A DNA stretch of 64,000 nucleotides, taken from positions 97,003-161,002 of the IMG/VR virus record IMGVR_UViG_3300025133_000029, one strand, 5' to 3'. The stretch's first letter is position 1, and every line of letters begins with the position of its first letter. The translations under genes and the position numbers were made by a program. Positions 35,921-64,000 of this stretch are shown piece by piece. Source of the stretch: a virus. The notes below the pieces were generated by a model, which was given only the letters and a program-made list of their open reading frames with translations, was not told the origin of the DNA and ran no database searches.

Positions 35921-35942
35921 CCTTGGGGGGGTGGAAAAAAAT

Positions 35943-36731
35943 TTATTTTTTTATTAAAACCGGCGCAAGAGGGACAATACCGAGGCTGCGGCCATTGTTG
36001 GGTGGTGCCTGGGTTTCGCTGGGGTTCTCTAGTGGTGCCGGGGTGAGGATATAGGGTGAGATGCGCCACTTGTCTTTTGGGTTTCCTTCGATGTGGGCAG
36101 AGACGGTTCTCTTGTTTACCCTTATAACGATGGCGTGTTCTGTGTTTCCTTGGTATGGGAAGCTTACGCGCTGCCCTGGGTAGAACTCCTGGATCTCTTC
36201 ATTGGGTCGTAGGTATTCGAGAGGGGGTAGTCCGGCGTCCCGTGCTTCACTATATATATAGATAGAAAGCTCTTGTGGAAGGTCGTGGTTGCGGTGGAGG
36301 TCATCGAGGATGCGATAGAAGGCGGGGCTGTGTACGTTGTTGCGGGTGGGATGTCCCCGATAAACTTGTATGAGGTGTGCGTATTCATGGAGGCACAGCG
36401 CGACCAACTGACATAGGAAGGAGTTGGGGTTGTCTTCTGAGGAGAAGTATCCACGTTCTCGTATCTCACTAGATGCGGTCCATCCGTGGGCGTGGCGCGG
36501 GGATTCCATTTTTTGGCGGATGGCTTTTTTGCCGTATCGGATGTAGTGCGTGCCTCGTTTTTTGATGTGGTGAGATGTCTTTCTATTGGACACTCCAAAG
36601 TCTACGGGGATATATGCAGTTGTTTGCATGATTTCGCGTATGGCGTAGTGGTGAATTACCTCTTTGGTGGCACTTGCCAGGATTAGGGCGAGTCTTTCTA
36701 TCTGTATATTGGTCCATGGTTGAGGTGTCAT
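35943..36731 (-). CDS. SprT-like zinc metalloprotease domain plus C-terminal SH3-like domain
   Basis: LHEYAHLI...HSPAFYRIL; FYPGQRVSF...VIRVNKRTVS. Confidence 0.75.
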   Translation of the reverse strand: MTPQPWTNIQIERLALILASATKEVIHHYAIREIMQTTAYIPVDFGVSNRKTSHHIKKRGTHYIRYGKKAIRQKMESPRHAHGWTASSEIRERGYFSSEDNPNSFLCQLVALCLHEYAHLIQVYRGHPTRNNVHSPAFYRILDDLHRNHDLPQELSIYIYSEARDAGLPPLEYLRPNEEIQEFYPGQRVSFPYQGNTEHAIVIRVNKRTVSAHIEGNPKDKWRISPYILTPAPLENPSETQAPPNNGRSLGIVPLAPVLIKK

Positions 36732-37059
36732 GTGGGGTTATCCTTTTTATATGGTGTGGTGATCCTCTTTCTTGTGTTGCTATCGTCCTGTCTGCGTATT
36801 GTATAGAAAGCAAAGCATTTACGTGTGGTTAGTCTTGGTGCGGGAGGACTTGGTGTACTGTCTGTAAAAATGGAGAATGTGGGGATTGTCCGAAAAAAAA
36901 AGATCCGGACAGTGAGCGGGTTTGATTAGGGTCTCTCACAGGGGAAGTAAGAGCTTTTTTGGTGGGGATTGTGGTTTTTGTGAAAAAGGGTAGTTTTGGG
37001 GTGTTTTTGGTGGGGAAAGGTGTGGATCTTTAGAGTCTAAAGATTTTCATGTAGAGGAC

Positions 37060-37100
37060 CCCACTCGCTTATATATATAAATATATATAAGCTCGTTGGG
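37060..37100. repeat. (TA)n-core hairpin element, copy 1 (reverse orientation)
   Basis: CCCACTCGCTTATATATATAAATATATATAAGCTCGTTGGG. Confidence 0.85.
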
Positions 37101-37104
37101 GCCT

Positions 37105-37602
37105 CTATGGTGATTTGTCTTTGGGTTGGGATATGTCGAAGATCTCTTGTGGGGTTCTCATGAAGGTTTTTGTACGTTGTTCTGGGTCAGGGTGGTTGTG
37201 GTATCGGATGGGTATGGGGGTGTGGGGGTCTGTTTTTAGAAGATTTGCGACAATGCTTCGTCCTTTTCCGATTCCACCAGTGTGATAGTTGACGTGCGCG
37301 ATGGGGAAAGTTTTGGTGAGAAGCTCTTCGGTTCCAGATTCTCTGGAGATGTCGAGAGGGGACATGGATGTTTCAGCGGATATGGTGGTGAGTTCGTGGC
37401 ATCCCGGTTGTTGTAGCACTTGGTCGATGCGCTCAATGCCACCTGCAACACCCGAAAACCCCTCGTCGCTGGATGAAGCCTGGAGGTAGTGTCGAGGGCA
37501 GGAGGTTGTTGGGTATAGTAGGATGCGGAGTCGGTATTGTTTGCCTGGGACGGGTTTGAATCGTTGGTGTTTGGATTGTGGTGGGCTGGAGGTGGGCTTC
37601 AT
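37105..37602 (-). CDS. hypothetical protein
   Basis: 165 aa; SD AAGGA. Confidence 0.5.
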   Translation of the reverse strand: MKPTSSPPQSKHQRFKPVPGKQYRLRILLYPTTSCPRHYLQASSSDEGFSGVAGGIERIDQVLQQPGCHELTTISAETSMSPLDISRESGTEELLTKTFPIAHVNYHTGGIGKGRSIVANLLKTDPHTPIPIRYHNHPDPEQRTKTFMRTPQEIFDISQPKDKSP

Positions 37603-37728
37603 GTTTATTTTTTATCCTTTTTGAGTTTGAAGTGGAGTTGAGTAAAGGAGGTGTCGCCATCGGAGGTCGTTCTTCTTTTGTAGACACGAAAGGAGATGGG
37701 GTGGGGAGAGGGTGGGGAGTGATGGATG

Positions 37729-38100
37729 CTATCCCAGCATGTCTCGGAGTTCTTCGAAGGCATCTCCGATGTCGTCGGAGTGTTCGCCCTGTGTCCATTC
37801 GAGGGCATAGGCGAGTCCTTGCACTTGGCACATCCAAATCAGTGCGCCGAGCTTTTCGGCCCCCTTGGGTCCAAAGATTTGACTGAAGTGGGATACCAGT
37901 TGAGGGTGCATCTCTACCTGGGCCTGGAGGGCTTCCCGCAGATTTTGGGTGGTGTCGGGGACGGACGCGGTGCGTTGTGGGTTTCCGACAATGGAGTAGG
38001 GGATGTGTGCTGCTGCTAGCAGTTGTTTTGCGCGTCCTGTGTTTTCTTCGACTGTGTTGTTGGGGCTGTCGTGGATGATGATTGTTTCTATTGGTTTCAT
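37729..38100 (-). CDS. hypothetical protein
   Basis: 123 aa downstream of the ComM-like gene. Confidence 0.6.
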   Translation of the reverse strand: MKPIETIIIHDSPNNTVEENTGRAKQLLAAAHIPYSIVGNPQRTASVPDTTQNLREALQAQVEMHPQLVSHFSQIFGPKGAEKLGALIWMCQVQGLAYALEWTQGEHSDDIGDAFEELRDMLG

Positions 38101-38111
38101 GTGTGCTGGGC

Positions 38112-39686
38112 CTACTGGTTAGGGGGGAGGAGGTCGAGGGCTTCTTTGAGGTGTTCGTCGAGGATGTGGATGGAGCCTTCGATGTCGGCGATGGTTCTGG
38201 CGAGTCTTCTGGCGGTGATTTTATTATAGAATCGGTGTGCTTGATTGAGGAGTCTGGTGTCGTTGCAGGATGTGAGGGCGAAGTCGTTGTGAGAGAGAAC
38301 GAAGTCGGGAGGGCATGTTCCGTTGTTGTTGAGATTGGGGGCGAAGAAGTTACGGAATCGTATTCGTTGGGCGTTACGGGCGAGGAGGAGAAACACTTGA
38401 AGTTCATCGCTGGTGGGGGCGTGGTGATTGTCTTTGGGGTCGTTGGGTGTTGGTGTGGGGAGGTGAGTCCATATCTGTACCCTATTGGCAATTCTTTGGT
38501 TGCCGGGAGTCATTTGTCGTCTTGAGCTATGGGGAGCTTGTGTGGAAAAAACGGGGAGTGTGTGAATGGGGAAGGTTGTGGTGGTGTGGAATGTGTTTCC
38601 GCGGAGTTTGTAGTTTTTTTGGAAGGAGTTGCTTGCTCGTGGTATTTGTCTTTCGCGTGGTGGAGAGTCGAGGGTTCCCTCGGGGGTGTGATACATGCAG
38701 TGAAAGAGTCGCTCGAGGGTGTCTTCGAAGAGGGTGGCTTCATCGAGGAAGAGGATTCCGTGCAGTGCTCGATGGAGTTCACCGGGGTGGTCGTGATTGC
38801 CGGTAAGACCCTTTGTGCTGATGGTGTGGTGGGGGGCGCGAAAGGGAGGGGCATTGATGGGTTCGGGGTTGTGTCTTGCGTAGAGGAGATTGAGGTCGCG
38901 CTGTTGGTATTCGTCGAGGGGTGGGAGGATAGTGTTGATGCGTCGGGCGAGCATGGTTTTGCCTGTGCCTGCTTCTCCGTGGATGGCGATGGGGTGCCAT
39001 CCGGATGCGGCGATCAGAGCATGGCGGATATTAGGGAGGAGGTGGCGAGGGAGTTGTGAGAAGCATAGGTGGGTCGATCGAGACAGTGTTTGTGGCTCTG
39101 TGGGGCTCTCAGGGGGGCTGTAGGGGACGAGGGCTCTGCCCTCTTGAGTCATTGCGTCGAGGAGGTAGGTGAGTTGTTCGATGTCTTCACATGGGATGAT
39201 GTCGACCTTGTCGGCGAAGAGGTTGAGGATGTTGGAGTGGGATCTGATGCAGTCAGTGGAGAGAAAGACTCGTGCGATAGTGTCGCACTGGGAGGCGTGG
39301 TGGAGAAGGGTGTAGAGTCCGTGACATGGTTTGATTCGGCCAGAGAGGGCCAGTTCGCCCCAAAAGATGGAGTTTAGGGTGGGGATAAAGGGGATGCGTT
39401 CTTGGGCGAGGAGGAGGGAGACCGCGATGGGGAGGTCGAGGCATTCGGTGTTATTGGTGTTGGGTTGTGCTTCGATAGTAGTGCGGTAGGGGATGGTGCG
39501 TGAGAAGGAGGTTGCGGAGTTGCGGAGAGCGGCGGTGACGCGGATCTTTGTTTCGCGGAGGGGTTTTTGGAGATCTTGTTGAGAGTGCTTGATGGTGAGT
39601 GCGGGTTCACCTGCTTGTAGAACTTCCGTTCCGATGAGCGCGGGGAGGGGGCGTGGTCCTCGCGAGAGAAATCCATTTACGTACAT
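38112..39686 (-). CDS. divergent ComM/YifB-like (Mg-chelatase-related) AAA+ ATPase
   Basis: LDLPIAV, GELALSGRIKP, GEAGTGKTMLARRINTILPPL, PFRAPHHTIS, PGELHRALHGILFLDE, RLARTIADIEG; the CPCG Zn motif is not seen. Confidence 0.88.
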   Translation of the reverse strand: MYVNGFLSRGPRPLPALIGTEVLQAGEPALTIKHSQQDLQKPLRETKIRVTAALRNSATSFSRTIPYRTTIEAQPNTNNTECLDLPIAVSLLLAQERIPFIPTLNSIFWGELALSGRIKPCHGLYTLLHHASQCDTIARVFLSTDCIRSHSNILNLFADKVDIIPCEDIEQLTYLLDAMTQEGRALVPYSPPESPTEPQTLSRSTHLCFSQLPRHLLPNIRHALIAASGWHPIAIHGEAGTGKTMLARRINTILPPLDEYQQRDLNLLYARHNPEPINAPPFRAPHHTISTKGLTGNHDHPGELHRALHGILFLDEATLFEDTLERLFHCMYHTPEGTLDSPPRERQIPRASNSFQKNYKLRGNTFHTTTTFPIHTLPVFSTQAPHSSRRQMTPGNQRIANRVQIWTHLPTPTPNDPKDNHHAPTSDELQVFLLLARNAQRIRFRNFFAPNLNNNGTCPPDFVLSHNDFALTSCNDTRLLNQAHRFYNKITARRLARTIADIEGSIHILDEHLKEALDLLPPNQ

Positions 39687-39808
39687 GGTAGCTCCTGGGT
39701 GGTGGGGGGGTGTTTTTTTATTAGTTGCTTCGTGAATGAAAGAAAGCAAAGCATTTACGTGAGGGGAAATCTTTAGAGTCTAAAGATTTTGGATAGAGGT
39801 GTTGTGGG

Positions 39809-39850
39809 TATACAACGAGCATATATATATAATATATATGCGAGTGTATA
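39809..39850. repeat. (TA)n-core hairpin element, copy 2
   Basis: TATACAACGAGCATATATATATAATATATATGCGAGTGTATA. Confidence 0.85.
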
Positions 39851-39944
39851 GGTGTGAATTAGAGGGTGACTCTTTTGGTTTCTTCTTCGGTGAGGCCATC
39901 GATGGTCTCGAGGTATTTTCGAGTGAGCCACGTTCTACGCATGC

Positions 39945-41087
39945 TCATGACTTATTGTCCTTTTCGCGCAGCGCCGCGCCGATGGTTTCCAGAGCGTCGT
40001 GTTCGTTGCTGGTGAGGAGGAAGTGGAGTTGCGCTTTAAAGCCTTCTTTCTCTAGATCCTGATTGCATTTTTCAAGGATGGCTTCGGTTCTATCGTTAAG
40101 GAAAAGCTGAACCCAGTCAGGAAGCTCTGTGATGTTGGGGTCGATGTCGTAGAGTTCGCAGAGGAGTTGCCAGTCACTCTTGTGTGGCCACCCGCAGCGT
40201 GAGGTGAAGTCCTGCCATGTTTGGGTGATCTCCGCGAGACCTTCCTTCACGTTATCACTCCACTCGTTGAAGTGGTCGACAAACCGCGACAGGGTGCGTA
40301 GCTGGGAAAGGAGACTGCTAGAGACTTGCTCGAAGTGTTCGACTTGAGCGCGGTGTCCATTTTGGGATAGAGACAAGATGTCCTTTGTTTCGCGGTAAAC
40401 CTCTGCCAGTTCAAGGCCAACCTTCCCAAAATGGTCGTGTCGTACTTTGAGTCGTCGCTTTTCTTCAACAATGAGGCGACGGATGGTTTCATCCAAGTGG
40501 GGGGTTCCATCTTCTGAGATGTCTTCGTCTTGTGTGTAGAAGGCTCCTCCTTGTATATCCCTGGCATCCTTGCAGGCATAGTACCAGTAAGGGACAGTGA
40601 CGGTGCTTTCGTAGGGGAAGGAGTAGTGGTTGGCGTTCAGGTAGTGGGAGAGGGGGCTTCCTTCGAGCGCTTCTTCGATCCGGGCTTCCTGGGTTTTGGC
40701 GAGGCTTGCTTGAATGGGTTGTCCGATGTAGGAGAGGGGTTTTTCGATTTGCCACTCGCCTTTAAAGGTGACCGTGATGGCTCCATCGGCTTCGTTGTCT
40801 TCCACATGGGAGACACCATAGATGACACGAATCATTCCCTCTTCGCGAAGGAACATGTTTTTGTCCAGGTAGAGAAGGAGTTCGCTTTGATCGGGATGTC
40901 CTTCGTTGCCTGGAGTTTCAAGTTCGTTAGCAAACTTGCAGGACTCTTCTGTTTTCTGATTCCCTCGCCAGTAGTAGGCAATCGTTTCAAGTATTGCCAC
41001 CGCTTGGGAGGCTTCCTGGGCTTCGTCCTCCGCATCAACATGGCGGTCCCAATCCTCACTGGGGCACCTCATTCTTGTCTTAGACAT
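39945..41087 (-). CDS. hypothetical acidic protein
   Basis: 380 aa; motif at 41140 plus SD AAGGAG. Confidence 0.78.
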   Translation of the reverse strand: MSKTRMRCPSEDWDRHVDAEDEAQEASQAVAILETIAYYWRGNQKTEESCKFANELETPGNEGHPDQSELLLYLDKNMFLREEGMIRVIYGVSHVEDNEADGAITVTFKGEWQIEKPLSYIGQPIQASLAKTQEARIEEALEGSPLSHYLNANHYSFPYESTVTVPYWYYACKDARDIQGGAFYTQDEDISEDGTPHLDETIRRLIVEEKRRLKVRHDHFGKVGLELAEVYRETKDILSLSQNGHRAQVEHFEQVSSSLLSQLRTLSRFVDHFNEWSDNVKEGLAEITQTWQDFTSRCGWPHKSDWQLLCELYDIDPNITELPDWVQLFLNDRTEAILEKCNQDLEKEGFKAQLHFLLTSNEHDALETIGAALREKDNKS

Positions 41088-41238
41088 CGTTGACTCCTTA
41101 TTGGTTACTAGTGTTTTCTCATATATGAAAAAAAACAGAGCATTTACGTGTATTGGGAAGTGAGGAAAAAAGGAAGGGTAGAGAAAGATGGGGAGAGAAA
41201 TCTTTAGACTCTAAAGATTTCTGTGTGTGTTGGTGGGG

Positions 41239-41523
41239 TTAGTTGGCGGGTCCGATGGAGATGTCGGTGTAGCCGTCCTGGGAAAGTTTTTCGTGGGTGG
41301 TTTGTTGTGTGCGGATAGCGAACTCTATCAATTTTTCAGAGGGAAACCATCGACAGTTGTTGGGGTCATATTCAGCTATGGTTTCCCCGTCCTTTGTGTC
41401 GAGGTCGGGGTTGGCCCCCATGCGAAGTTCGTCATATGTGAGTTGAAAAAAAGGAGACTCGAGGTGTTTGATGACGAAGCTTTTGTCTTCGTGGATATTC
41501 ATAAATTCTATGGAGAAGATCAT
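41239..41523 (-). CDS. hypothetical protein
   Basis: Start at MIFSIEF with SD AAAGGA. Confidence 0.6.
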   Translation of the reverse strand: MIFSIEFMNIHEDKSFVIKHLESPFFQLTYDELRMGANPDLDTKDGETIAEYDPNNCRWFPSEKLIEFAIRTQQTTHEKLSQDGYTDISIGPAN

Positions 41524-41551
41524 TGTTGTTCCTTTGAGTGTGTTGGTGGGG

Positions 41552-42136
41552 TTAGTTGGCGGCTTCTTTGATGTATTGGTTGAGGCGCATGGCACGTTTG
41601 AGGAGGTTGTCACTCCAATCCGCGCCAGCGTAGAGCGGTTGAAGGGCAGGGCGTTGGGGCATGCCGTATCGCGTGTTGCCGAAACTGTTTGTGTTTTCTT
41701 CGATCCACTCATTCAGTTCATTGATGAGTCTGGACGCGCGGCGTTGCTGACAGTTACAGAGGGCATCGATGATAGCCTCGTGCTTGGTCCGAGCGATGTT
41801 GGCTTCTCTGATGGTGTCGTCGTCCCCAACCCATCGTTGTTCAGCTTTGGCGTCAAGGAGGGCGCGGTGGACAGCGGCGTCAATCCAGTCCCAGAGACAT
41901 GCGTCCTTGAGCATGGTGGGGCGTTCGGCTTTGATGTGGTCGTATATTTGGCGCAGGGAGGGTGGATACCCGACTCGATGATATCGTCGGAGGGCGTCTT
42001 TGACGAGACTGATCATCTCGTTCTTTTCTTCTTGGGTATAGGGGATGTTGTCGGTGGAGGACTTGAGTGGCCATCCACAGTTATCGCGACTGAGAACTTT
42101 GCAGTAGTTGGGTACGTATCCGTGGGCGTAAGACAT
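41552..42136 (-). CDS. hypothetical protein, possible HTH
   Basis: GYPPSLRQIYDHI segment; SD AGGAG. Confidence 0.7.
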   Translation of the reverse strand: MSYAHGYVPNYCKVLSRDNCGWPLKSSTDNIPYTQEEKNEMISLVKDALRRYHRVGYPPSLRQIYDHIKAERPTMLKDACLWDWIDAAVHRALLDAKAEQRWVGDDDTIREANIARTKHEAIIDALCNCQQRRASRLINELNEWIEENTNSFGNTRYGMPQRPALQPLYAGADWSDNLLKRAMRLNQYIKEAAN

Positions 42137-42145
42137 GGGTAGCTC

Positions 42146-42451
42146 CTATTGGTTGTCTTGTTCTTCTTCAAGCGCAGAGAGGCGCTCAAGTCGCCAGCCC
42201 TTCAATTTTTCGAGGAGGGCGATAAGACTGTCGATTTCTTTCGTGGTTTCAAGATACAGGTGAATCTTCCTGCGGAAGGTGTACTGGTCATGATCGTCGG
42301 GGATGTTGAAGGTGATACATGAGTTGACCCGTGCTTCGAGATCGGCCACATCGTCGTCGGGTCCGAGGGCTCTTGTACTTGAGCTGGCCCCGGCGCTACA
42401 TCCTGGGAAGTGTTTAGTGGTTTTGCGTCGGTGCATGCTAGTGAGGATCAT
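42146..42451 (-). CDS. hypothetical protein
   Basis: Motif at 42498 plus SD AAGGAG. Confidence 0.68.
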   Translation of the reverse strand: MILTSMHRRKTTKHFPGCSAGASSSTRALGPDDDVADLEARVNSCITFNIPDDHDQYTFRRKIHLYLETTKEIDSLIALLEKLKGWRLERLSALEEEQDNQ

Positions 42452-42557
42452 CTTCTTTCTCCTTGTTGGCTAGGTGTCACCTACATAAGAAAGCAGAGCA
42501 TTTACGTGTCGGGGGGGTGAAAAAGAGGAGGGGGGAGGTTGTTGGGGGGAGGTTTTA

Positions 42558-43025
42558 CTAGCAGAGGATGGAATCACTTTCTTCAACAGTGAGGATGACT
42601 GCGGGGAGGTATTCGAGTCCTAACATTTTTGCTTTAGCGATGCGGTGCCAGCCATCAATAATGAAAAGGGATGTTTGCCCTTCGTGTGGGGGGGAGGTGA
42701 GTACTTTTGTTATAGCGATGAGCGGGATACTGAGGTTGAAGCGACCCAGACGCTGCTGGACATCTGCCAGGATGGCATCCCAGTCAACGGAGATCATCAT
42801 CATTTGTAGCTTGCGCTTGCCGTCAGGACCCGGTGGATTGCCTACGTAGTCTGCAAGACCTTCTATTCCAATTTTGATAATTTCGCGCTCGTCTTGTCGG
42901 AGGATTTCTTTAGCTTTCACAACATCCCACATGGTGCGCATGAGTTGAAACGCTTCATCCTCGCAATGTTCACTGGTGGTGTCCCATTCAAAGTCGGGAA
43001 CTTCCATCGTGGGGTAGTGTGTCAT
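42558..43025 (-). CDS. ParB/Srx N-terminal-like domain protein
   Basis: PLIAI...FIIDGWHRIAKA..LG...LPAVIL. Confidence 0.72.
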   Translation of the reverse strand: MTHYPTMEVPDFEWDTTSEHCEDEAFQLMRTMWDVVKAKEILRQDEREIIKIGIEGLADYVGNPPGPDGKRKLQMMMISVDWDAILADVQQRLGRFNLSIPLIAITKVLTSPPHEGQTSLFIIDGWHRIAKAKMLGLEYLPAVILTVEESDSILC

Positions 43026-43048
43026 GATCTATTCCTTAATATAAAAAA

Positions 43049-43212
43049 AGAGCAGGCATGTTAGTGCTTGGTTGGGCGCTACTTCAAAGAACAAAAACTT
43101 TTTTATCAGGAGCCGTTTTGAACTTTGTGGGGATTGAGAGCCGCCTGTAGCGCCTCCATGAACACCCTTTTTTACCACCTAGCATTTAGCGGTTATCTAA
43201 CATGCCCGCTCT
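43049..43212 (-). ncRNA. candidate structured RNA
   Basis: 16-bp closing stem with G-U on the minus strand then a U7 tract; nested stems. Confidence 0.45.
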
Positions 43213-43483
43213 CATGTGTTTAAGTATCAGTCATGTGAGAGGGAAAAGGAAGCCCCGCGCTGCGCATCAGTTGTTTGCTTATGCCAAAGTCTGGTGTGTG
43301 GGTTAGTTTTGGCAAATAGTGATTCGTTTGATGCGAAGCGCAGGGATTCCAATCGTAACGTTTGGGGTTATTGTTGTTAGAGAAACGGGTTGGGGTTGAG
43401 TTTTGAGAACTGCGGGTTAGGGTTGTTGTTTAGTGTGGGCGAGTGTGGGGCCAAATGGCCCCGTGTGGGGGTGGAGTTGTTTC

Positions 43484-44170: not shown

Positions 44171-44369
44171 GATTGTTCTCCTGCCCTATTTTTAGGGGCT
44201 TTGCTAGGAAGTTGCGCTAAAGTGCGCTGTGGCGTGTTCGCTAGTTGTTAGCGTTTCGCCGGGTTCGCTATTGAGAGAAAGCAGAGCATTTACGGGAAGT
44301 CAGTCAAAACAAAAAAGGATGACCGGGAGGCCATCCTTAGACAGTTGGGGTTTGGGTGTGTGTTGGGGC

Positions 44370-45233: not shown

Positions 45234-45278
45234 TTGTTTGATTGTGGTGGTGACAGAATCTTTAGACTCTAAAGATTC

Positions 45279-55536: not shown

Positions 55537-55658
55537 AAGCTCCTGCTAGGCTTTTTGGCTAGCGGGTTATCCGCTAGCTCTCTTTGTTCATGTGTATAAA
55601 AAACCAGAGCATTTACGAGAAGGGTGGGGTGGGCTAACAGCCCCGAATACATGGGTGA

Positions 55659-56018: not shown

Positions 56019-56407
56019 TTTTTATATCCTCGCTATAGGTTGCGTGGATATAAAAAACCAGAGCATTTACGTGTGGTGAGCTTAAATGAAAAAGCCCCCG
56101 AGGTGGGGGCGAGGTAGCGCTTGGGCTAAGGCGGGAAAGGGCGACCCCGTGGGGTCTCGTGAGGGATGGGGCGGGTTAGGGTTGGCGGGGTGTCGGGTTA
56201 GGGTGTCGCGTCAAAACACCGTGTACTTTTTGGGGAACATGATAGTCCTCTTTTGGCGTAGATTGGGCCGCGATAGATTCGGTGCGGTCCCGTTATTTGG
56301 ATGTTGCCGGTCGCATCCGCCTTGCGGTGCGGTGCGCGTTGGTGGGGCTATCCCCTAAACCTAATGGTAGCCGGTGGGGTATTGTGATCGCATGTGAATC
56401 CTTATGT

Positions 56408-56520
56408 GTTAGTGGTGGGCAAGGACAAGGCTAACCGTCACTAGGGGCTAACGTAATCGCGGCCATGATTCTCGATGGCGGCTAGTGTAATCACTCACTA
56501 GCGGGGCCAGCCTCATCCTC
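56408..56520 (-). ncRNA. candidate small multibranch RNA directly downstream of promoter motif 56540
   Basis: About 15-bp closing stem with G-U pairs on minus; inner hairpins GCTAGTG/CACTAGC and GCCAT/ATGGC. Confidence 0.55.
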
Positions 56521-56588
56521 ACACATCAAAGAAAGCAGAGCATTTACCTATAAACATCGAAGCGAGGTTCCCCTGGCCCCTTTTCTGT

Positions 56589-56792
56589 TTACACTTTCTC
56601 CCAGGCTCCGTATCGTATCGACCTTATCCCTAATTCAGCTTTCATCGCTTTCATGCGATGTTCACCCTGCCAAGGACCTTTGTTCGCTTCCTCTTTATCC
56701 CCCGCGAATAAGCGGGGGCTGTGATGAATCACTTCATTTTCTTCATACCCGACAAGGGCTTCATCCCCTATCACTTCTCTCATAACGCTCAT
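56589..56792 (-). CDS. hypothetical protein
   Basis: Motif at 56839 plus SD AAGGA. Confidence 0.65.
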   Translation of the reverse strand: MSVMREVIGDEALVGYEENEVIHHSPRLFAGDKEEANKGPWQGEHRMKAMKAELGIRSIRYGAWEKV

Positions 56793-56904
56793 TTTTTATC
56801 CTTGTTAGCTATAGGGTTCATACCTATAACAAAACAAAGCATTTACGTGTTGAAAGGACAAGGGGCTAGCTAATCCCTAGCTAGCCCCCCTCGGATGTTA
56901 GCGG

Positions 56905-57357
56905 TTACAGTTGATCGGCACACTCGGCGAGTCTCAGATAGGTTTTGTCAAAAGCCCGAAGGTATACCTCGGGCCATTTTTCGCTATAAGCCCCGGCGAG
57001 GCGTTCGCGGGTGTAGCGTTTGTAGCCGTGTTCAATGATCGCTTTGATCGCGATCACTACCCCGTTGAAGGTCATATCAATACGGTCTTCGTTGAAAACA
57101 ATGTATTGAGTGAGATCCTCGGTGAACGGTTGTCGGACACGATCGCTAACACTTTGATTCAAGACGTCTTCGGTGTACACCGTGAGTTCATCCTCATCGG
57201 TTGATTCAATTGCAACCGCGTCGTTGAGGTAAGCGCTAAGTAAGGCAAGCGCTTGTTTTTGTTGATTGCTCGCCTTGTCGGCGGCAAGGCTCAATCCTTT
57301 GTCGGTTAGGGCGCGAAGGTCGGTTAGTTCAAAGGGGTCTTCAGGTGAACGGTGCAT
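56905..57357 (-). CDS. hypothetical protein
   Basis: Motif at 57415 plus SD GAGG. Confidence 0.72.
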   Translation of the reverse strand: MHRSPEDPFELTDLRALTDKGLSLAADKASNQQKQALALLSAYLNDAVAIESTDEDELTVYTEDVLNQSVSDRVRQPFTEDLTQYIVFNEDRIDMTFNGVVIAIKAIIEHGYKRYTRERLAGAYSEKWPEVYLRAFDKTYLRLAECADQL

Positions 57358-57477
57358 TTTTTACCTCACTAAGGTTTATCTAGTCTAACGCTTTCATACA
57401 CATAACAAAGCAAAGCATTTACCTAATAAAAGCGGAATAGAGAACCCGCCTAAGCGGGTTGTGGGGGATTAGTTCAG

Positions 57478-57810
57478 CTACCCTTCTTGAGGTTGTCCTG
57501 CGTGGTCGATCTCTTGAAGGTCGAGCTTGAACCCCGTGTCACGAAGCATTTGGGCGGCTTGAACGGGGTCGATCACGATGCACTCGAGCGCGGTCCCAGA
57601 CCCATATTCCGGTTCTTCGCCCCATCGGTCGGGGTTGGCCGCCCGATCGAACGTTTGGAGAGAGAAGTCTCCATCATCTTCAAATTTGATAACAAGGTCA
57701 CATTGATCTTCGAATCGCTTTGTCCATTTCACGGCGACACTCAGGGTTCGCGTGCGGGGGTTGAAAATGATAGGGCTGTAGTTCACCGGGGTTTTCATCA
57801 GTTCGGTCAT
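57478..57810 (-). CDS. paralogue of the gene ending at 62564
   Basis: SPIIFNP.T.TLSVA...DR.ANPDRWGE..E.G.GTALEC. Confidence 0.8.
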   Translation of the reverse strand: MTELMKTPVNYSPIIFNPRTRTLSVAVKWTKRFEDQCDLVIKFEDDGDFSLQTFDRAANPDRWGEEPEYGSGTALECIVIDPVQAAQMLRDTGFKLDLQEIDHAGQPQEG

Positions 57811-58013
57811 TTTTTCTACCTCATAGGGTTTGTTAGCCGGGTTCATCCCGGCCTAACGTTCACACCCGCAACAAAATAAAGCATTTACGTGTTGAGGTAT
57901 AGATCCCCTTATAGCGCCCTTAAGGGTTGTTTTGTCTATAGCGCCCCTAGCGCCCCTAGCCCTTTATAAAGCCCTAGCGCCCTTATAAGGCCCTTTGTTA
58001 TATAAGACAACCG

Positions 58014-58063
58014 CGCCCTTAGTTGACTATGATCACCCCGCCCTTAGTTGACTATGATCACCC
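58014..58063. repeat. 25-bp tandem duplication
   Basis: CGCCCTTAGTTGACTATGATCACCC x2. Confidence 0.9.
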
Positions 58064-58128
58064 TAGACCTTGAGGTAAATGCTCTAGTTTTTTAGGTAGT
58101 TGATAACACTAATAACTAAGGAGCTAAC

Positions 58129-58287
58129 ATGAACTACCTGACTTATTTGAAAAGCCGCCGAGCCAAGGCGATCCGCGAGATGAGAAACGCCGCTCATGAG
58201 GGCAATTGGGCGGTTTATGAAAAACTCTTAGATCTGATAAATGAGCTTGATCAAGATATTATGATAGAGGGGATTTTTGAGGGTTAA
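58129..58287 (+). CDS. 52-aa helical protein (not in the ORF track)
   Basis: Motif at 58075(+), SD AAGGAG, MNYLTYLKSRRAKAIRE...IFEG*. Confidence 0.7.
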   Translation: MNYLTYLKSRRAKAIREMRNAAHEGNWAVYEKLLDLINELDQDIMIEGIFEG

Positions 58288-58481
58288 CTAAGGCTTAGGG
58301 GGGGCTTAGGGGGGGCTTAGGGGGGGCTTAGGGGGGCTTAGGGGCTAACACATACATATAGCCGGGGCTAACACAAACAAGCCCCTTGTTATAAAAACAA
58401 AGGGCTTAGTAAATGCTCTAGTTTTTTATACCTATAAATCTTTAGACTCTAAAGATCCCCCTCACCCCCCCTTTTGTTGTT

Positions 58482-58769
58482 TTATTCGACGTTGATAACA
58501 ACGGTCACAAAGTGTCCCGGTGCGGGGTGAATATTTTCCGGGAACCCTTGTCTCGCTGAAAACTTTTTAGACGCGTTCATATTGAATTCGGGATTGTGTT
58601 TATAGCGGTCCCCGGCGATTGATTGATCGGCTTGATCTATCGCGTCTGCAAGGGCGTCGTACCAAGTTGGCCCTGTTCCTAAGAAGCCTTCGGGCGGGAT
58701 CTCATTGATAGGCTTCGGGTAGCTCGGCTCTTTGATTGAGGGGCAGGCCGCGTACAAAAGTTTAATCAT
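58482..58769 (-). CDS. hypothetical protein
   Basis: Motif at 58814 plus SD GAGGA. Confidence 0.68.
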   Translation of the reverse strand: MIKLLYAACPSIKEPSYPKPINEIPPEGFLGTGPTWYDALADAIDQADQSIAGDRYKHNPEFNMNASKKFSARQGFPENIHPAPGHFVTVVINVE

Positions 58770-58934
58770 TGTGTTTATCCTCGTTATAGGGTTCAAACTT
58801 ATAAGAACCTAGAGCATTTACCTAAAAAGCCCCTTGTTATAACAACAAAGGGCTTAGTAAATGCTCTAGTTTTTTATACCTATAAATCTTTAGAGTCTAA
58901 AGATCCCCCTCACCCCCCTAAGCCTAGCCCTATC

Positions 58935-59306
58935 TTAGTTATCAGTCGCCCGATATCGTCTGATCCGGGGAGCGTATTTTTGATGAAAGTCCTCATACGT
59001 GTTATGCAGGGGAAAGGTGTGGGTCAAAACGGTTACGGCGGTGTAGCAGTGGTCACCAAGATCGTCGATCGTGACCGTGAGGGTCAGTTCCCCGACAAGC
59101 ATGAAACAGGTCGTTTGACCGTGGCCGCATAGCCACTCACACTTATCGGGGTCGGCCTCAAACTCAACATCTTCAACCGTCACCTTAGCGTTGCCTATGT
59201 TGTTATTGAGTTCCTCATCAATCCCCCAACCCTCGACGTCATGGGGGCTGGCGGCAGTGATCGCCGCCGCGATTTCTTCCGCCGTAGCGGGTTTGTTAAA
59301 CATCAT
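58935..59306 (-). CDS. hypothetical acidic protein
   Basis: Motif at 59355 plus SD AAGGAG. Confidence 0.72.
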   Translation of the reverse strand: MMFNKPATAEEIAAAITAASPHDVEGWGIDEELNNNIGNAKVTVEDVEFEADPDKCEWLCGHGQTTCFMLVGELTLTVTIDDLGDHCYTAVTVLTHTFPLHNTYEDFHQKYAPRIRRYRATDN

Positions 59307-59394
59307 CTTGTTAGCTCCTTATAGCTATAGGGTTCAAACTTATAAAAACCTAGAGCATTTACCTATCAAGACCCTTAAAGGGGTTAGCCCCGGC

Positions 59395-59625
59395 TAGCCT
59401 TATTTGTTCCACTTGGGGCGCTGGTTCAGCGCTAAGGCTAGGCGCGGGGCCTGTTTACGGCGTCGGGTTCATGCCTAGCGGGGTGAAAATACTTTCAACT
59501 AGGGCCGTCTTAGATCGGGATATCCCCCCCGATCAACCGCTCACTTGAGCGCTAAGGTTATCACGGGTAAGGGATGCTTTGATTGCCCTTTTGGGTGACC
59601 CGTGAGCCGTTAGCTCAACGTCGTT
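59395..59625 (-). ncRNA. candidate structured RNA downstream of promoter motif 59646
   Basis: No credible ORF; stems TTGAGC/GCTCAA, TCACGGGT/ACCCGTGA, GATCGGG/CCCGATC, GCGCTG/CAGCGC. Confidence 0.5.
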
Positions 59626-59673
59626 CACCTATATAATAAAACAAAGCATTTACATGAACACGCTATAAACAAC

Positions 59674-59692
59674 AAAAGCCCCGTTAGGGGCT
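59674..59692 (-). terminator. repeated cassette terminator AGCCCC(TAAC/GCTA-type loop)GGGGCTTTT
   Basis: Near-identical hairpins also at about 60463, 61625, 61866, 62527, 63953. Confidence 0.8.
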
Positions 59693-59710
59693 AGCTAGAC
59701 TTAGTGGGGG

Positions 59711-60193
59711 CTAGTGTTTGAACACCCATCGCATCAGTTGACGGATCGGGTTATTATAGGCGAGTCCCCACCCGGCGATCTTAGATCGTGTGAGGTTGAA
59801 GGGGTGATTATAGCCAGCCAGGATCTCCCCTGCCGCCCCGGCGCTGAGAGAGATCATAGCTATGTTGTCGGGGTTGTCCGGATCGCGGAAAGGGTTGTCT
59901 TCACGGGGGATCATATAGGTCGACATAGACCTGATCCTTAGCGCGACAGTGTGAATAGTCGGAAGCTTGAGACAGGGGTGCTCACGTAATAACTCCGCAG
60001 TGTCATCAACCTTTTTATATTCACGAAGATCAAGGATCAGGTCATAGTGACCGAGTTCCCAAAACTTCTTAGGGTCGGGCTGATTGATCACAATCACGCC
60101 CCCCCCGTTCAAAAATAAGATCGGGTCTTGTCTTAGTTTTGAGATGAGAATCGGGTCATCAGGGATCACCTTTACCTCAATTTTCTTTTTCAT
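59711..60193 (-). CDS. hypothetical protein
   Basis: Motif at 60255 plus SD AGGAG. Confidence 0.72.
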   Translation of the reverse strand: MKKKIEVKVIPDDPILISKLRQDPILFLNGGGVIVINQPDPKKFWELGHYDLILDLREYKKVDDTAELLREHPCLKLPTIHTVALRIRSMSTYMIPREDNPFRDPDNPDNIAMISLSAGAAGEILAGYNHPFNLTRSKIAGWGLAYNNPIRQLMRWVFKH

Positions 60194-60499
60194 TTTGTTA
60201 GCTCCTAGCTAATAAAGGGTATATAGGGGATCACTCAACCTATAACAACCCAGAGCATTTACCCTGCTAGGGTTAGCGGGGGTTAGCTAGGGTTAGCGGG
60301 GGCTAGCGGGGGTTAGCTAGGGTTAGTGGGGGCTAGTGGGGGCTAGTGGGGGCTAGCGGGGGTTAGCGGGGGCTAGCGGGGGCTAGCGGGGGCTAGCGGG
60401 GGTTAGCGGGGGCTAGCGGGGGTTAGGTAAATGCTTTGTTTTGTTGCACTAGCTCGAACAACAAAAGCCCCTAACGGGGCTAGTTAGGGCGCGGGGGGT

Positions 60500-60907
60500 C
60501 TACTTGATCCAGATCGCCGCGTCAACCGTCAGGGCGTAGGCGGTCATAGCGATCAGGCCGATGACCGCGCCGATCATGAGAAGTTTGAGTGTTTTTTTGA
60601 GCGTGATCGGGCGCTCAGGCTTAGGGGCCTCAAGGCCGCGTAGGTCAACGAGCGTGGGCATTTGCCCGAACAATCCTTCTTCGTGAAGGGGCTTAGGGGG
60701 GGCTTGTTGAGGGGTCGCGGTGTCAATCTTAAGCCAACCCTTGGGCACACGCGGCTCGTGTGTCGAGGGCGCGGGGTAGCTCAGGGGGGGGGTGATCGCG
60801 GGGTGTTCGGGGTAGTTGAGCGCGGGGGGGGCCGTTTTCACGGTGTCATTAGGGGTGTCGGTAATAACGCGGGTGAAGGGGCTTTTGTAGGCTGCGGTCA
60901 TGTTCAT
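60500..60907 (-). CDS. Pro-rich protein with a C-terminal membrane anchor
   Basis: LLMIGAVIGLIAMTAYAL; motif at 60989. Confidence 0.7.
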   Translation of the reverse strand: MNMTAAYKSPFTRVITDTPNDTVKTAPPALNYPEHPAITPPLSYPAPSTHEPRVPKGWLKIDTATPQQAPPKPLHEEGLFGQMPTLVDLRGLEAPKPERPITLKKTLKLLMIGAVIGLIAMTAYALTVDAAIWIK

Positions 60908-61039
60908 TTTTCTTTCCTATAGCTAGGGGGGCGACCGGGTTGTTGATCCCGGTCAGGGTGTTTTGTGCTCAACCTATAACAACCCAACGCATTTACCTAA
61001 ACCCCTATAAATAGGTAAATACTCTAGTCTTTTGTAGGG

Positions 61040-61237
61040 GTGAGCTAACAAGTGTTCGGGCCTCGCCCCTTGTTAGCCTAAGCCCCGGCTAGGGGTCACG
61101 GATCTAACACCGCGACCTGACCCTATAGCCCAGGCTAACGCCCCGTTAGGGGGCCAACGGTTAGGGATCTATGATCGCGGCCTAACCCTAAGCCCCCTAA
61201 CAAAAAGGGCACCTAAGCGGCTATAAGCCCCTTTTTT
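61040..61237 (+). ncRNA. candidate structured RNA downstream of promoter motif 61015
   Basis: No ORF; stems GCTAACAAG/CTTGTTAGC, GGGTCA/TGACCC, TTAGGGGGC/GCCCCCTAA enclosing GGTTAGG/CCTAACC; ends AAAAAGGG..CCCTTTTTT. Confidence 0.48.
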
Positions 61238-61340
61238 GACAATGTTTTGGGCTTTTTATAGGCGCTTAGGTTTATCCTGGCTTAGGTAAATACTCTAGGT
61301 TTTTATAAGTTTGAACCCTATAACTATAAGGACAAAAAAA

Positions 61341-61541
61341 ATGTTCAAAGGCTTTAAAATGATCGCCGCCCTCGCCGCTAACGCCGCTAACATCCGGATC
61401 GCCGCCCTGGAGGCCAAAATTGAGTGGCTTTTCGACAACTTTGAAGGTTGTGACTGGTGTGACGAATGTGGCGGGGGTGACCGCTTATTAGCGGCCTATG
61501 AGGCGGAGATCGCCGCCCTTGAGGCTAGCTTAGGTCGCTAA
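61341..61541 (+). CDS. small helical protein with CDWCDECG
   Basis: Motif at 61286(+) plus SD AAGGA. Confidence 0.7.
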   Translation: MFKGFKMIAALAANAANIRIAALEAKIEWLFDNFEGCDWCDECGGGDRLLAAYEAEIAALEASLGR

Positions 61542-61660
61542 CACAAAAAGGGGGGGGCGGGGGATTTTTTTGACTTTAAAGGTTCTTATATAACAAAGCA
61601 GAGCATTTACCTTAGTCCAACAACAAAGCCCCGTTAGGGGCTAGCTAGGGTTAGCGGGGG

Positions 61661-61780
61661 TTATTTTTTGTTAGGGGTGGGGGCGTTTTTTGAACGCCAC
61701 ATCACCCATGATTTTTTAGTGCATGCGCAGTTGTGAATAAACCAAATTTCGTAATTGTAATTTTTGTTAGAATCTTTCAT
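61661..61780 (-). CDS. 39-aa peptide (not in the ORF track)
   Basis: Motif at 61838, SD AAGGA, MKDSNKNYNYEIWFIHNCAC... Confidence 0.55.
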   Translation of the reverse strand: MKDSNKNYNYEIWFIHNCACTKKSWVMWRSKNAPTPNKK

Positions 61781-61898
61781 TTTGTTCCTTATCTAATAAA
61801 GGGTCATAGGGGATCACTCAACCTATAACAACCCAGAGTATTTACCCCTAGCCGCTATAAACGAGAAAAGCCCCGCTAGGGGCTAGCTAGGGTGTGAC

Positions 61899-62195
61899 CT
61901 AACCGCGCGGGTCTTCATAGTCAAGCCCTAGCGCGGCGGCGAGGTCCGGGCTAAGATCCCAAGCGCTAGCGATCTGCCACCGGATCGGGTAGATCGCTTC
62001 ACCGGGGTGATCGGTGTGTTGACGGGTGAGGGGGTGCGTGTTATAAACGCGGCTATCCGCGTCAATAACAAGAGTGTTACCCTTGAAGGTGACCCCCTTG
62101 AGGGCTTCAGCGGCAGGGATAGCCCCCTCGCTGTAACCCTCAATCGCGGGGCGCGGGTCAGTGAATCGGCGGCTAGTGAAGTTAGGCTTAGTCAT
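61899..62195 (-). CDS. hypothetical protein
   Basis: Motif at 62251 plus SD AAGGAG. Confidence 0.72.
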   Translation of the reverse strand: MTKPNFTSRRFTDPRPAIEGYSEGAIPAAEALKGVTFKGNTLVIDADSRVYNTHPLTRQHTDHPGEAIYPIRWQIASAWDLSPDLAAALGLDYEDPRG

Positions 62196-62563
62196 GTTAG
62201 CTCCTTAGCTAATAATAAATAGGGGATCACTCAACCTATAACAACCCAGAGCATTTACCCGTTAGGGTTAGCTAGGGCTAGCTAGGGCTAGCGGGGGCTA
62301 GCGGGGGCTAGCGGGGGCTAGCGGGGGCTAGCGGGGGCTAGCTAGGGTTGTTAGGGTTGTTAGCTAGGGTTGTTAGGGTTGTTAGGGTTGTTAGGGTTGT
62401 TAGCTAGGGCTAGCTAGGGTTGTTAGCTAGGGCTAGGGTTGTTAGCTAGGGTTAGCTAGGGTTAGCTAGTACAACAAAAGGTTTATAACAAAGCAGAGCA
62501 TTTACCCCTAAGCCGCTATAAACGAGAAAAGCCCCGCTAGGGGCTAGCTAGGGGCGCGGGGGG

Positions 62564-63013
62564 CTAGCTAAGGGTCAGATTAGCTTTGATCTCAACCCGG
62601 CGGTTTTCAAGATCGCCGTATGTCAGGGGGATCACACCGTTAGCGAACACTTGATCGCGCTTGAGGGGGGGGTGGCTAGGGTCACACCGCTTGATCCAAC
62701 TGTTAGCTTGTTGAAGGGTCAAGGGGCGGCACTCAAGCGCGGTGCCCTCACCGATCTCAAGATCTTCACCCCAGCGATCGGGGTTAGCCGATCGGTCTAA
62801 CACACCGTGATTGATCACGCCGCGCCGGTGGCTAAGCGTAAGGATAAGATCATAATCACCGACAACCGTCGATCCGTTATATTCTTGATTAGGATCAACC
62901 GGGGCGGCAACGCTAAGCGTCATAGTTTGAGGGTTGAAAATGATCGGGCTAACGTTATTGATGTCGGGGATTTTTTGATCTAACATTTTCTTTCGGCGAT
63001 CGGTTTGACTCAT
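62564..63013 (-). CDS. paralogue of the gene ending at 57478
   Basis: See 57478; motif at 63073 plus SD AAGGAG. Confidence 0.8.
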   Translation of the reverse strand: MSQTDRRKKMLDQKIPDINNVSPIIFNPQTMTLSVAAPVDPNQEYNGSTVVGDYDLILTLSHRRGVINHGVLDRSANPDRWGEDLEIGEGTALECRPLTLQQANSWIKRCDPSHPPLKRDQVFANGVIPLTYGDLENRRVEIKANLTLS

Positions 63014-63130
63014 GTTTGTTAGCTCCTTAGCTAATAATAAATAGGGGATCACTCAACCTATAACGGATCAAAGCATTTACCTGTTAGGGCTAGGGGCCAA
63101 CTAGCCCCGCCTAACTAGCCAACGTTGATC

Positions 63131-63310
63131 TCACGGCTGAACTTGTACCAATACCGCGGCCCCCAAGCTAATAATGCCCCAGGCCCTCATCATTTTTCGA
63201 GAGGCGGATTTCCTAAGAAAAGCGGGGGGGAGGGTCAATTGGCCCTTGTGGCCCCCCCGCGTGAAGCTTTTGTTAGGGGTGATCATTTCAGTTTTGACAA
63301 AAAATTTCAT
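63131..63310 (-). CDS. 59-aa basic peptide (not in the ORF track)
   Basis: Motif at 63370, SD AGGAG, MKFFVKTEMITPNK... Confidence 0.58.
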   Translation of the reverse strand: MKFFVKTEMITPNKSFTRGGHKGQLTLPPAFLRKSASRKMMRAWGIISLGAAVLVQVQP

Positions 63311-63427
63311 TTGTTAGCTCCTAGCTAATAAAAGGGTATAGGGGATCACTCAACCTATAACGGATCAAAGCATTTACCTTAGCTTGATCAATAACAAAAA
63401 CCCCGCCTAAGCGAGGCGCGGCGGGGA

Positions 63428-63709
63428 TTAGCGGCGGCTATAGCGGATCAAATCATAGCCCCAAATCTGCCGGATCTTAGACCCGCTTTTAACAACGCGG
63501 CTAAGGGTTAAGCCGAGATTATAGGCGCTAACAAAACGCGGGGGGGCGGCGCTCATAAGCGGCCACAAGGACAGGCGGCTATCATAATAAAAGCCCTTGG
63601 CGGGGTCGTCCTTAGAGATCCGGTCAAAGGCATAGCGGGGGGAGATCCGGTCAAAAATGATAGGATAGTTGATAGCGGCTTGTTTGTGTTGTTTTTGTTG
63701 TTTAAACAT
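63428..63709 (-). CDS. small basic protein
   Basis: Motif at 63761 plus SD AAGGAG. Confidence 0.65.
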   Translation of the reverse strand: MFKQQKQHKQAAINYPIIFDRISPRYAFDRISKDDPAKGFYYDSRLSLWPLMSAAPPRFVSAYNLGLTLSRVVKSGSKIRQIWGYDLIRYSRR

Positions 63710-64000
63710 TGCTAGCTCCTTATAGGGTATAGGGGATCACTCAACCTATAACGGATCAAAGCATTTACCCGCTAGGGTTAGCGGGGGCTAGCGGGGGCTA
63801 GCTAGGGTTAGCTAGGGTTAGCGGGGGCTAGCGGGGGCTAGCTAGGGTTAGCGGGGGCTAGCTAGGGTTAGCGGGGGCTAGCTAGGGCTAGCTAGTACAA
63901 CAAAAGGTTTATAACAAAGCAGAGCATTTACCCCTAAGCCGCTATAAACGAGAAAAGCCCCGCCAGGGGCTAGCTAGGGGCGCGGGGGGCTAGCTAATAA

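Follow-up and report, generated by a model that had tools for sequence, protein, structure and literature searches.

The final 64 kb of a 161,002-nt IMG/VR virus contig, hereafter the window, comes from an uncultured marine large tailed (jumbo) phage and carries one long array of small gene cassettes, in which 44 copies of a promoter-like motif are interspersed with about 45 open reading frames (ORFs). The array spans 33574..64000, mostly on the minus strand, and the contig, estimated to be 68% complete, ends inside it. Whole promoter-to-promoter units have been duplicated, lost, replaced and reordered between natural strains of this phage, as supported by direct strain comparison. The closest known system is the promoter early stem-loop (PeSL) cassettes of T4-type phages, and we class the array as PeSL-like and hyperplastic, although it lies outside the T4 group and is built on a new type of promoter. 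The explanation that we consider best, and in its full form reasonably likely, is that the array is a hyperplastic accessory-gene block of the phage, probably an early block, whose repeated promoters provide the homology for shuffling. An initial annotation of this DNA had described a cassette array starting at 35,943; the array is real, and it begins earlier than that, at about 33.6 kb, with a motif at 34,469.

We started with the motif itself. Its 12-mer core, GTAAATGCTYTG, occurs 46 times in the window with at most one mismatch, against 0.5 expected and a maximum of 3 in 100 shuffles. When the whole contig was scanned with a 30-nt weight matrix, 46 matches exceeded 16.3 bits (the best shuffle reached 15.3), of which 44 lie within window positions 34,469-63,931, 37 on the minus and 7 on the plus strand. 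The remaining two are weak outliers at 20,278 and 23,183, and the first 117 kb of the contig contain none. One of the weak copies, at 20249-20278 in the non-array part (20.4 bits), has a perfect TATAAT 9 nt past its GTAAAT hexamer. Motif positions 1-12, where information content is highest, are invariant save for Y10 and G/A12, and are followed by conserved columns TTT (14-16), TT (18-19), ATA (20-22) and, more weakly, TGA (27-29). The 12-nt spacing from GTAAAT to TATA that had been noted earlier was confirmed in these conserved columns. The motif is asymmetric, without a dyad, and lies on the strand of its downstream ORF wherever one exists; as the initial annotation had observed, it flips with gene orientation, the copies at +58,075 and +61,286 both preceding plus-strand ORFs. 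In exact 21-nt searches it was arrayed in none of 185,579 GTDB species genomes (19 scattered singletons) and in no other IMG/VR contig (3 singletons).

The motif had been said to precede nearly every gene or gene pair. This holds for 36 of the 44 copies: behind each comes an ORF of 25 aa or more with a Shine-Dalgarno (SD) site in front of it, one of these (a 50-aa TTG ORF after +58,857) being doubtful. The other 8 copies have no ORF. The start codon lies 52-91 nt past the motif start (at 123 in two cases) and never closer than 52 nt, which would suit transcription starting at about +29 and leaders no shorter than 22 nt. Copies without a convincing ORF run into a palindrome (58,409+ and 58,857+), 10-nt tandem repeats (62,505 and 63,931) or a hairpin (60,427+), or are followed by longer untranslated stretches (56,547, 59,653, 61,610 and 61,015+). 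The leaders fall into subtypes that cluster by position, as had been proposed, with GGTTGAGTGATCCCCTAT present six times at 60.2-63.8 kb and GAACCACTTAGCTA five times at 49.8-54.2 kb. Terminators are less general than first thought: a hairpin plus T-run lies within 90 nt upstream in only 15 of 42 copies, ending 6-39 nt upstream of the motif, compared with 13% of control windows. Most terminator-bearing copies are in 52.8-64 kb, and most copies in 34-52 kb lack one; in 59-64 kb hairpin, spacer and promoter are conserved together as a single unit. Across the array, terminator-like hairpins are enriched (43 found vs 23 expected).

Next, we compared the array between strains. No match was found among 50,697 phage records when 49 kb of the window was searched with megablast; one metagenome contig (L020) is identical to the window, and the sequence of the helicase encoded in the array is present on about 10 metagenome contigs. 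A second strain, strain B, is represented by L019 and L028 from a single JGI record, and L029 is a strain nearly identical to L028. Strain B is 96.7% identical to the window over 54,564-41,535 (13 kb) and mosaic beyond, and the array region is the most variable part between the strains. It lacks the window cassettes of 160, 95 and 67 aa and a counterpart of the 119-aa ORF, and carries ORFs of 186, 141, 96, 95, 88, 56, 52 and 49 aa that are lacking in the window. Cassette order is not invariant either: the window has genes of 93, 59, 149 and 98 aa in succession, where strain B has the 59-aa orthologue twice, a 141-aa gene, and then the 93- and 98-aa orthologues. The smallest change was seen between L028 and L029, which are 99.8-100% identical. 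A 282-bp unit is present as two identical tandem copies in L028 and as a single copy in L029; it spans exactly from one motif start to the next, comprising leader, 52-aa ORF and terminator, and the ends of the copy change lie in register within about 95 nt of repeated terminator-promoter-leader sequence. The homology blocks have 26 interior boundaries. In both strains, 8 of these fall inside the motif (-5 to +50) and 14 in the wider interval from -70 to +50, although such intervals cover only 8-9% and 17-18% of the sequence (binomial P 1e-4 to 3e-8 overall, and 4e-5 to 3e-8 for the wider interval). Because motif copies align anywhere, BLAST blocks tend to stop at motif edges, and the boundary statistic therefore shows cassettes as the unit of change rather than a crossover site inside the motif. 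The array of strain B continues for about 1.7 kb past the point where the window contig ends, up to a split ISAzo13-type transposase and pentapeptide-repeat genes, so that the whole array would measure about 32 kb. The split ISAzo13-family DDE transposase (L028 1507-2725) is encoded in two overlapping frames of 181 and 235 aa and adjoins two pentapeptide-repeat proteins.

We then asked what could read the promoter. With the TATA-like element taken as the -10, the invariant 12-mer spans -30 to -19, and there is no conservation at the -35 position. No register of the motif places a hexamer 16-18 nt upstream of the -10-like element, and the geometry of a sigma-70 promoter is thus absent, in line with the non-canonical promoter of the initial annotation. 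Consensus sigma-70 sites number 13 in the array, with 14.9 expected, and in the replication block (L024, contig 36-56 kb) they are depleted (23 vs 37.3 +/- 4.9 expected in shuffles). Other registers were rejected on reading the sequence. An archaeal TATA/BRE register would put the start inside the ribosome site or beyond it, and for a Bacteroidota -33/-7 register the pattern is missing and the strength of the SD sites speaks against it; the NtcA (GTA-N8-TAC) and sigma-54 (GG-N10-GC) registers gave no fit.

The contig, which covers an estimated 68% of the genome, was also searched for a reader of its own. Six-frame searches of the 161 kb found no match to PF00562 (RNA polymerase beta) and no sigma-70 domain of any weight, and likewise no MotCF domain (PF09158, at E <= 10). 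There was no match to PF00940 (T7-type polymerase), a weak negative since this profile matched 0 of 14 control genomes. The DxDGD catalytic motif is found in none of the large ORFs, with one chance match in a 168-aa frame, and the DNA polymerase is the one place where the polymerase motif B pattern (RxxxK..YG) occurs. When 140 non-array ORFs were compared with PHROG, no transcription protein stood among the best 25 of 37 and the best 25 of 39 families matched per batch. Three candidates were rejected on inspection. A Sigma70_r2 match at contig 28.9 kb is a spurious antisense frame of a low-complexity gene; a Sigma70_r4/ECF match at contig 92 kb is a 236-aa protein with one N-terminal helix-turn-helix (HTH), more like a small terminase or regulator; and a 1,647-aa protein, considered as a packaged polymerase or sigma, has no Pfam match and no polymerase motifs.

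Finding relatives of the helicase in IMG/VR required an alignment query, as a single helicase query found no match there. Relatives of the helicase share 41-59% identity, the closest (59%) being that of a sister phage (IMGVR_UViG_3300018080_000112; locus L033, handle G001) of 144 kb, estimated to be 89% complete. In place of the window motif, which it lacks, the sister phage carries a different and longer invariant block of 22 nt in 13 copies, all on one strand (0-1 in the control) and spread over its 144 kb rather than arrayed. One copy precedes the helicase orthologue and another an ArdA operon. The block ends 6 nt before a T-run and TAT/TGT-A element, just as in the window motif, and the downstream half of some copies is nearly identical to that of the window motif. 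The layout is thus conserved and the specificity block changed, which argues indirectly for a phage-borne reader, with a change of host as the alternative. The sister phage also has, in L013, tandem iteron arrays of GTCAACAGCCTTGA (up to about 20 copies with a 30-31-nt period) directly upstream of several genes, at 4800-5450, 16876-17150, 17991-18300 and 18783-19000, and near them a gene for a 393-aa protein with HTH and Sigma70_r4 domains, no homologue of which was found in the contig of the window. The more distant relatives L016, L145 and L146 have tightly packed operons with ordinary-looking promoters and no repeated promoter motif.

Putting these observations together, we propose that each of the 44 units opens with a one-way promoter of about 30 nt, made up of the 12-mer, a T-run and a TATA-like -10, with a predicted transcription start at the conserved TGA(A/G), about 29 +/- 2 nt past the start of the motif. 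With the TATA element as the -10, a -35 hexamer is missing and the invariant block lies at -30 to -19, so that the reader would most likely be the host core RNA polymerase with a phage-specified recognition factor or a remodelled sigma. Under each promoter there would be between one and three small genes, or else a micro-peptide or non-coding RNA. Being repeated, often together with the preceding terminator and the following leader, the promoter would provide 12-50 nt of exact, portable homology that UvsX, SbcCD and RusA could use for unequal crossover. Unit duplication, loss, replacement and reordering would follow without a site-specific recombinase; these outcomes are seen directly in the strain comparison, and the crossover mechanism is what we suggest behind them.

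Several observations weigh against this explanation. Content and order do differ between near-identical strains and boundaries do concentrate at the motif, as the initial annotation had expected of shuffled cassettes, but three indels in the well-conserved half do not use it. A 94-aa gene (41249-41535) is absent from strain B, and the indel has at its edges an unrelated direct repeat of 25 nt, a duplicate of the end of the gene before it; a 253-aa pentapeptide-repeat gene, intact in strain B (L019 18808-19569), was lost from the window by an internal deletion that left a 29-aa remnant (39856-39948); and for the 186-aa insertion in strain B the left edge alone falls in the motif. Exact identity between most motif copies is also short (median 11 nt). 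The variation might accordingly reflect selection on illegitimate or microhomology events occurring everywhere, of which only whole-unit changes survive. The 25-nt repeat and the plain internal deletion speak for such a process, as does identity of only about 11-20 nt between most motif pairs. The 282-bp change between the 99.8%-identical strains, in register within long repeated sequence, speaks against it, and so does the position of the longest exact repeats (40-51 nt), which sit in 58-64 kb, the most mosaic part. We consider this reading fairly unlikely, and prefer promoter-borne homology. On the side of transcription, the start site, timing and reader are all predictions from sequence. 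An RNA polymerase or sigma gene could lie in the missing part of the genome, and an unusual host sigma may be the reader.

That an unmodified host holoenzyme, with its primary or an alternative sigma, reads the motif, the extra bases being 'uber-promoter' features with no phage factor involved, is in our view possible, if rather doubtful. It agrees with the failure to find a phage sigma, RNA polymerase or MotA, and immediate-early genes must be transcribed before any phage protein exists; moreover, T4 early promoters carry consensus beyond the sigma-70 elements (PMC2988021), and in the sister block an A-run and the string CTTGCC/CTTGAC may serve as UP and -35 elements. However, the hexamer expected 16-18 nt upstream of the TATA element is missing, no representative bacterial genome has the motif in an array, and the sister block is wholly different at orthologous promoters, which is unexpected with one conserved host sigma, although different hosts could explain it. 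A phage-encoded RNA polymerase (single-subunit and T7/N4-like, or a divergent two-barrel enzyme), situated in the missing third or unrecognisable and possibly injected, seems to us improbable. The continuous conservation over about 22 nt, ending in TATA before a purine, does recall T7-group promoters, the contig is incomplete, and the 1,647-aa protein has no family match. Yet neither polymerase family was matched (with the stated weakness of PF00940) and no polymerase motifs were seen outside the DNA polymerase, the 89%-complete sister phage likewise has no RNA polymerase beta-like gene, and head, protease, terminase and replication genes are already within the 161 kb. Very improbable, in our view, is a motif that acts as the operator of a shut-off or activator protein, or at the RNA level as a signal for processing or antitermination, with weak and variable promoters beside it. 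Its strongest conservation does fall in the would-be spacer, and the scarcity of terminators makes read-through likely in 34-52 kb, but the motif is asymmetric and strictly co-oriented with genes, lies downstream of terminators where these are present, and includes a T-run and TATA of its own whose distance is fixed, with no other conserved promoter-like signal nearby. We keep to host core polymerase with a phage-specified factor as the most likely reader. The initial annotation had proposed a phage-specific or alternative factor as the reader; no gene for an RNA polymerase, sigma or MotA in the 161 kb supports a phage-specific one, whose sole, indirect support comes from the different block of the sister phage.

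PeSL cassettes consist of a terminator hairpin and a strong promoter flanking small ORFans in the hyperplastic regions of T4-type phages (Arbiol et al., 2010, PMC2839356; Comeau et al., 2014, PMC4122927), and their promoters are of the sigma-70 type, TTGACA-N17-TATAAT or close variants (PMC2839356; PMC4122927). The array shares with them a repeated regulatory unit beside small ORFans in a hyperplastic region, insertions, deletions and replacements between close relatives that are bounded by the unit, and the lack of a site-specific recombinase. It differs in that its promoter has no sigma-70 geometry, that only about a third of its copies have a canonical stem-loop, and that it is one contiguous 30-kb array of 44 rather than several scattered regions. 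The phage is also not T4-like. Outside the array the contig codes for a DnaB-type helicase, a family A-type DNA polymerase (assigned to phrog_17, with a 'DNA polymerase I' match) and a primase; for UvsX, SbcC, SbcD and RusA; and for a terminase, major head protein, head protease, ParB and DNA methyltransferases. The family A-type polymerase, the DnaB-type helicase and a lattice of ParB-type sites set it apart from the T4-like myovirus lineage.

The promoter itself is reminiscent of the T4 middle promoters used by MotA and AsiA, in which a box (a/t)(a/t)(a/t)TGCTTtA lies 12 +/- 1 bp upstream of a TAtaaT -10 (Hinton, 2010, PMC2988021); PeSL-like units built on Mot promoters are found in phage nt-1 (PMC4122927). 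In both cases a phage-specific box replaces the -35 and is combined with a -10-like element, and the TGCTYTG core of the window motif with its A/T-rich 5' bases resembles the MotA box. Nevertheless, the window box ends 6 nt before the TATA, and the last -10 position is not T. Dense clusters of small genes behind many near-identical strong promoters are a further point of likeness, shared with the T4 early genes and the SPO1 host-takeover module. The T4 early 'uber' promoters and those of the SPO1 module are read by the host sigma-70 or sigma-A holoenzyme and have canonical -35 and -10 elements at 17-bp spacing, which the window promoter does not. Integron cassettes, which are without promoters and need an integrase and attC sites, also form ordered arrays of exchangeable single-gene units. 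The units of the window, by contrast, each carry a promoter, and no integrase or attC-like hairpin was found. For the split beta/beta' genes of a phiKZ/AR9-type multisubunit polymerase, PF00562 gave no match in the window contig or in the sister phage, and a cognate gene as in T7/N4-type systems was not found in the 161 kb, with the PF00940 negative being weak.

The cargo is mostly without recognisable family. Out of 40 array proteins that were scanned, only four match a Pfam family above its curated cut-off, namely the ComM/Mg-chelatase-like ATPase, the SF1B helicase, the RadC-like JAB protein and the SWIM zinc-finger protein. No recombinase was found among them, and the only transposase is the split ISAzo13-type gene past the array edge in strain B. 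Paralogous cargo, reported earlier, exists but is limited to two pairs. The initial annotation had also included RNAs and peptides in the cargo. Rfam and tRNA scans gave no family and no tRNA, but the ORF-less unit after motif 56,547 has a 15-bp closing stem that strain B maintains with changed bases, and a 10-aa micro-ORF, MR(S/Q)QYPTGYH, with its own ribosome site (window 56390-56425; strain B L028 11640-11680), whose codons differ synonymously between the two. As both are kept in strain B, RNA and peptide cargo is plausible.

Two further repeated elements accompany the promoters. Three arrays of the 10-nt unit GGGCTAGCGG (plus strand, 12-20 copies) lie at 60270-60426, 62263-62469 and 63775-63892, directly upstream of the subtype-II promoters 60262, 62258 and 63768, respectively, and two of them would themselves be transcribed from ORF-less promoters (62505 and 63931). 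Tract length differs between the 99.8%-identical L028 and L029 (193 vs 73 nt between flanking motif starts). The period of one helical turn suggests a protein-binding array. In addition, a palindrome that occurs genome-wide ends upstream of four array promoters, 7 nt away in three cases and 10 nt in one (positions 39780, 45165, 53625 and 55230). In two other cases (58437 and 58885) it lies downstream, beginning about 28 nt past an ORF-less promoter of the plus strand. This ParB-type palindrome may regulate or block some array promoters.

Individual cassettes are given here from the contig end inwards, on the minus strand unless stated. The outermost motif, 63931 (63775..63931), has no ORF and leads into the first of the 10-nt repeat arrays. 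It is followed by motif 63768 with a subtype II leader and a 93-aa ORF (63428..63768), motif 63377 with the 59-aa ORF whose orthologue is tandemly duplicated in strain B (63131..63377), and motif 63080 (62564..63080) with a 149-aa ORF, a paralogue of the 110-aa ORF at 57478-57810 (47% identity over 76 aligned residues). Motif 62505 (62263..62505), again without an ORF, runs into roughly 10-nt repeats, after which come a 98-aa ORF behind motif 62258 (61899..62258), a 39-aa ORF behind motif 61845 (61661..61845) and the ORF-less motif 61610 (61545..61610). A flipped cassette with a 66-aa ORF (motif +61286, 61286..61541, plus strand) precedes the ORF-less plus-strand motif +61015 (61015..61044), which stands back to back with motif 60996 and its 135-aa ORF (60500..60996). 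Motif +60427 (60427..60490, plus strand) has no ORF and is directly followed by a GC hairpin. The cassette at 59711..60426, made up of a 10-nt repeat array, motif 60262 and a 160-aa ORF, is absent as a whole from strain B.

Further in, motif 59653 (59395..59653) is followed by about 230 nt with no ORF, and motif 59362 by a 123-aa ORF (58935..59362). Motif +58857 (58857..58925, plus strand) has no credible ORF, the palindrome beginning about 28 nt past the motif start, and shares its unit, with 51 nt of exact identity, with the ORF-less motif +58409 (58409..58470, plus strand). Between these two is motif 58821 with a 95-aa ORF (58482..58821) that is absent from strain B. The second flipped cassette, motif +58075 (58075..58287, plus strand), carries a 52-aa ORF. 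It is succeeded by motif 57888 with the 110-aa ORF (57478..57888), motif 57422 with a 150-aa ORF that is 54% identical to its strain B counterpart (56905..57422), motif 56846 with a 67-aa ORF absent from strain B (56589..56846), and motif 56547 (56071..56547), which has no long ORF and includes the stem and conserved micro-ORF. Motif 56070 heads the 119-aa ORF without a strain B counterpart (55659..56070), motif 55616 a 79-aa ORF (55294..55616), and motif 55207, with the palindrome 7 nt upstream, the 138-aa SWIM zinc-finger protein (54733..55207). Motif 54647 precedes an 84-aa ORF (54329..54647), strain B having its extra 186-aa cassette directly after this motif, and motif 54246 a 165-aa ORF (53696..54246).

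Motif 53602 has a 205-aa ORF (52908..53602) that is the paralogue of the 228-aa ORF at 43484-44170, motif 52859 a pair of 155 and 111 aa (51901..52859), and motif 51854 the 205-aa RadC-like JAB protein (51184..51854). ORFs of 148, 159 and 199 aa follow behind motifs 51140 (50636..51140), 50583 (50048..50583) and 49867 (49209..49867). The 531-aa SF1B (RecD/Dda-like) helicase stands behind motif 49151 (47468..49151). The next two motifs each head a pair of ORFs, of 87 and 116 aa for 47383 (46643..47383) and of 245 and 177 aa for 46599 (45279..46599), and motif 45143 (44370..45143), with the palindrome 7 nt upstream, heads a 235-aa ORF. Motif 44293 (42558..44293) has a 123-nt leader, the 228-aa ORF and then a 155-aa ORF, and motif 42505 begins an operon of 101, 194 and 94 aa (41239..42505). 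Behind motif 41147 (39856..41147) are a 380-aa ORF and the 29-aa remnant of the pentapeptide-repeat gene. Motif 39758 starts an operon (37105..39758) of the ComM/Mg-chelatase-like ATPase (524 aa) and downstream ORFs, and the array closes with a 262-aa ORF behind motif 36822 (35943..36822) and a 273-aa ORF behind motif 34469 (33574..34469), the latter outside the coordinates of the initial annotation.

The helicase differs in its surroundings among the phages compared. In the relatives L013, L017 and L145 an SF1B helicase gene lies a few genes downstream of a block of SbcC, RusA and a large ATPase, on the same strand, with SbcD seen in this block only in L145. In the window phage SbcC is 105 kb away on the opposite strand, and the helicase gene (47468-49063) lies inside the array.

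These findings extend PeSL-type shuffling, previously described only in T4-type phages, to an unrelated uncultured marine jumbo phage, and natural strain pairs catch its single events: a one-cassette duplication, gains, losses and a swap in order. The promoter fits no described class, and the change of its spelling between sister phages, with the layout staying the same, offers a handle on a new polymerase-redirecting factor. We put forward only tentatively the wider proposal that a clade of marine large phages directs RNA polymerase by a -35-less promoter, whose block abutting the -10 (-30 to -19) would co-evolve with a phage factor, and that the same element drives a 30-kb cassette system for creating and testing genes, micro-peptides and RNAs. 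The roughly 45 mostly family-less cargo genes are a candidate set for host-takeover or anti-defence functions, and relatives carry ArdA and pentapeptide-repeat proteins in a comparable setting. Altogether, the array points to repeated promoters as a general means by which large phages turn over their accessory and counter-defence genes.

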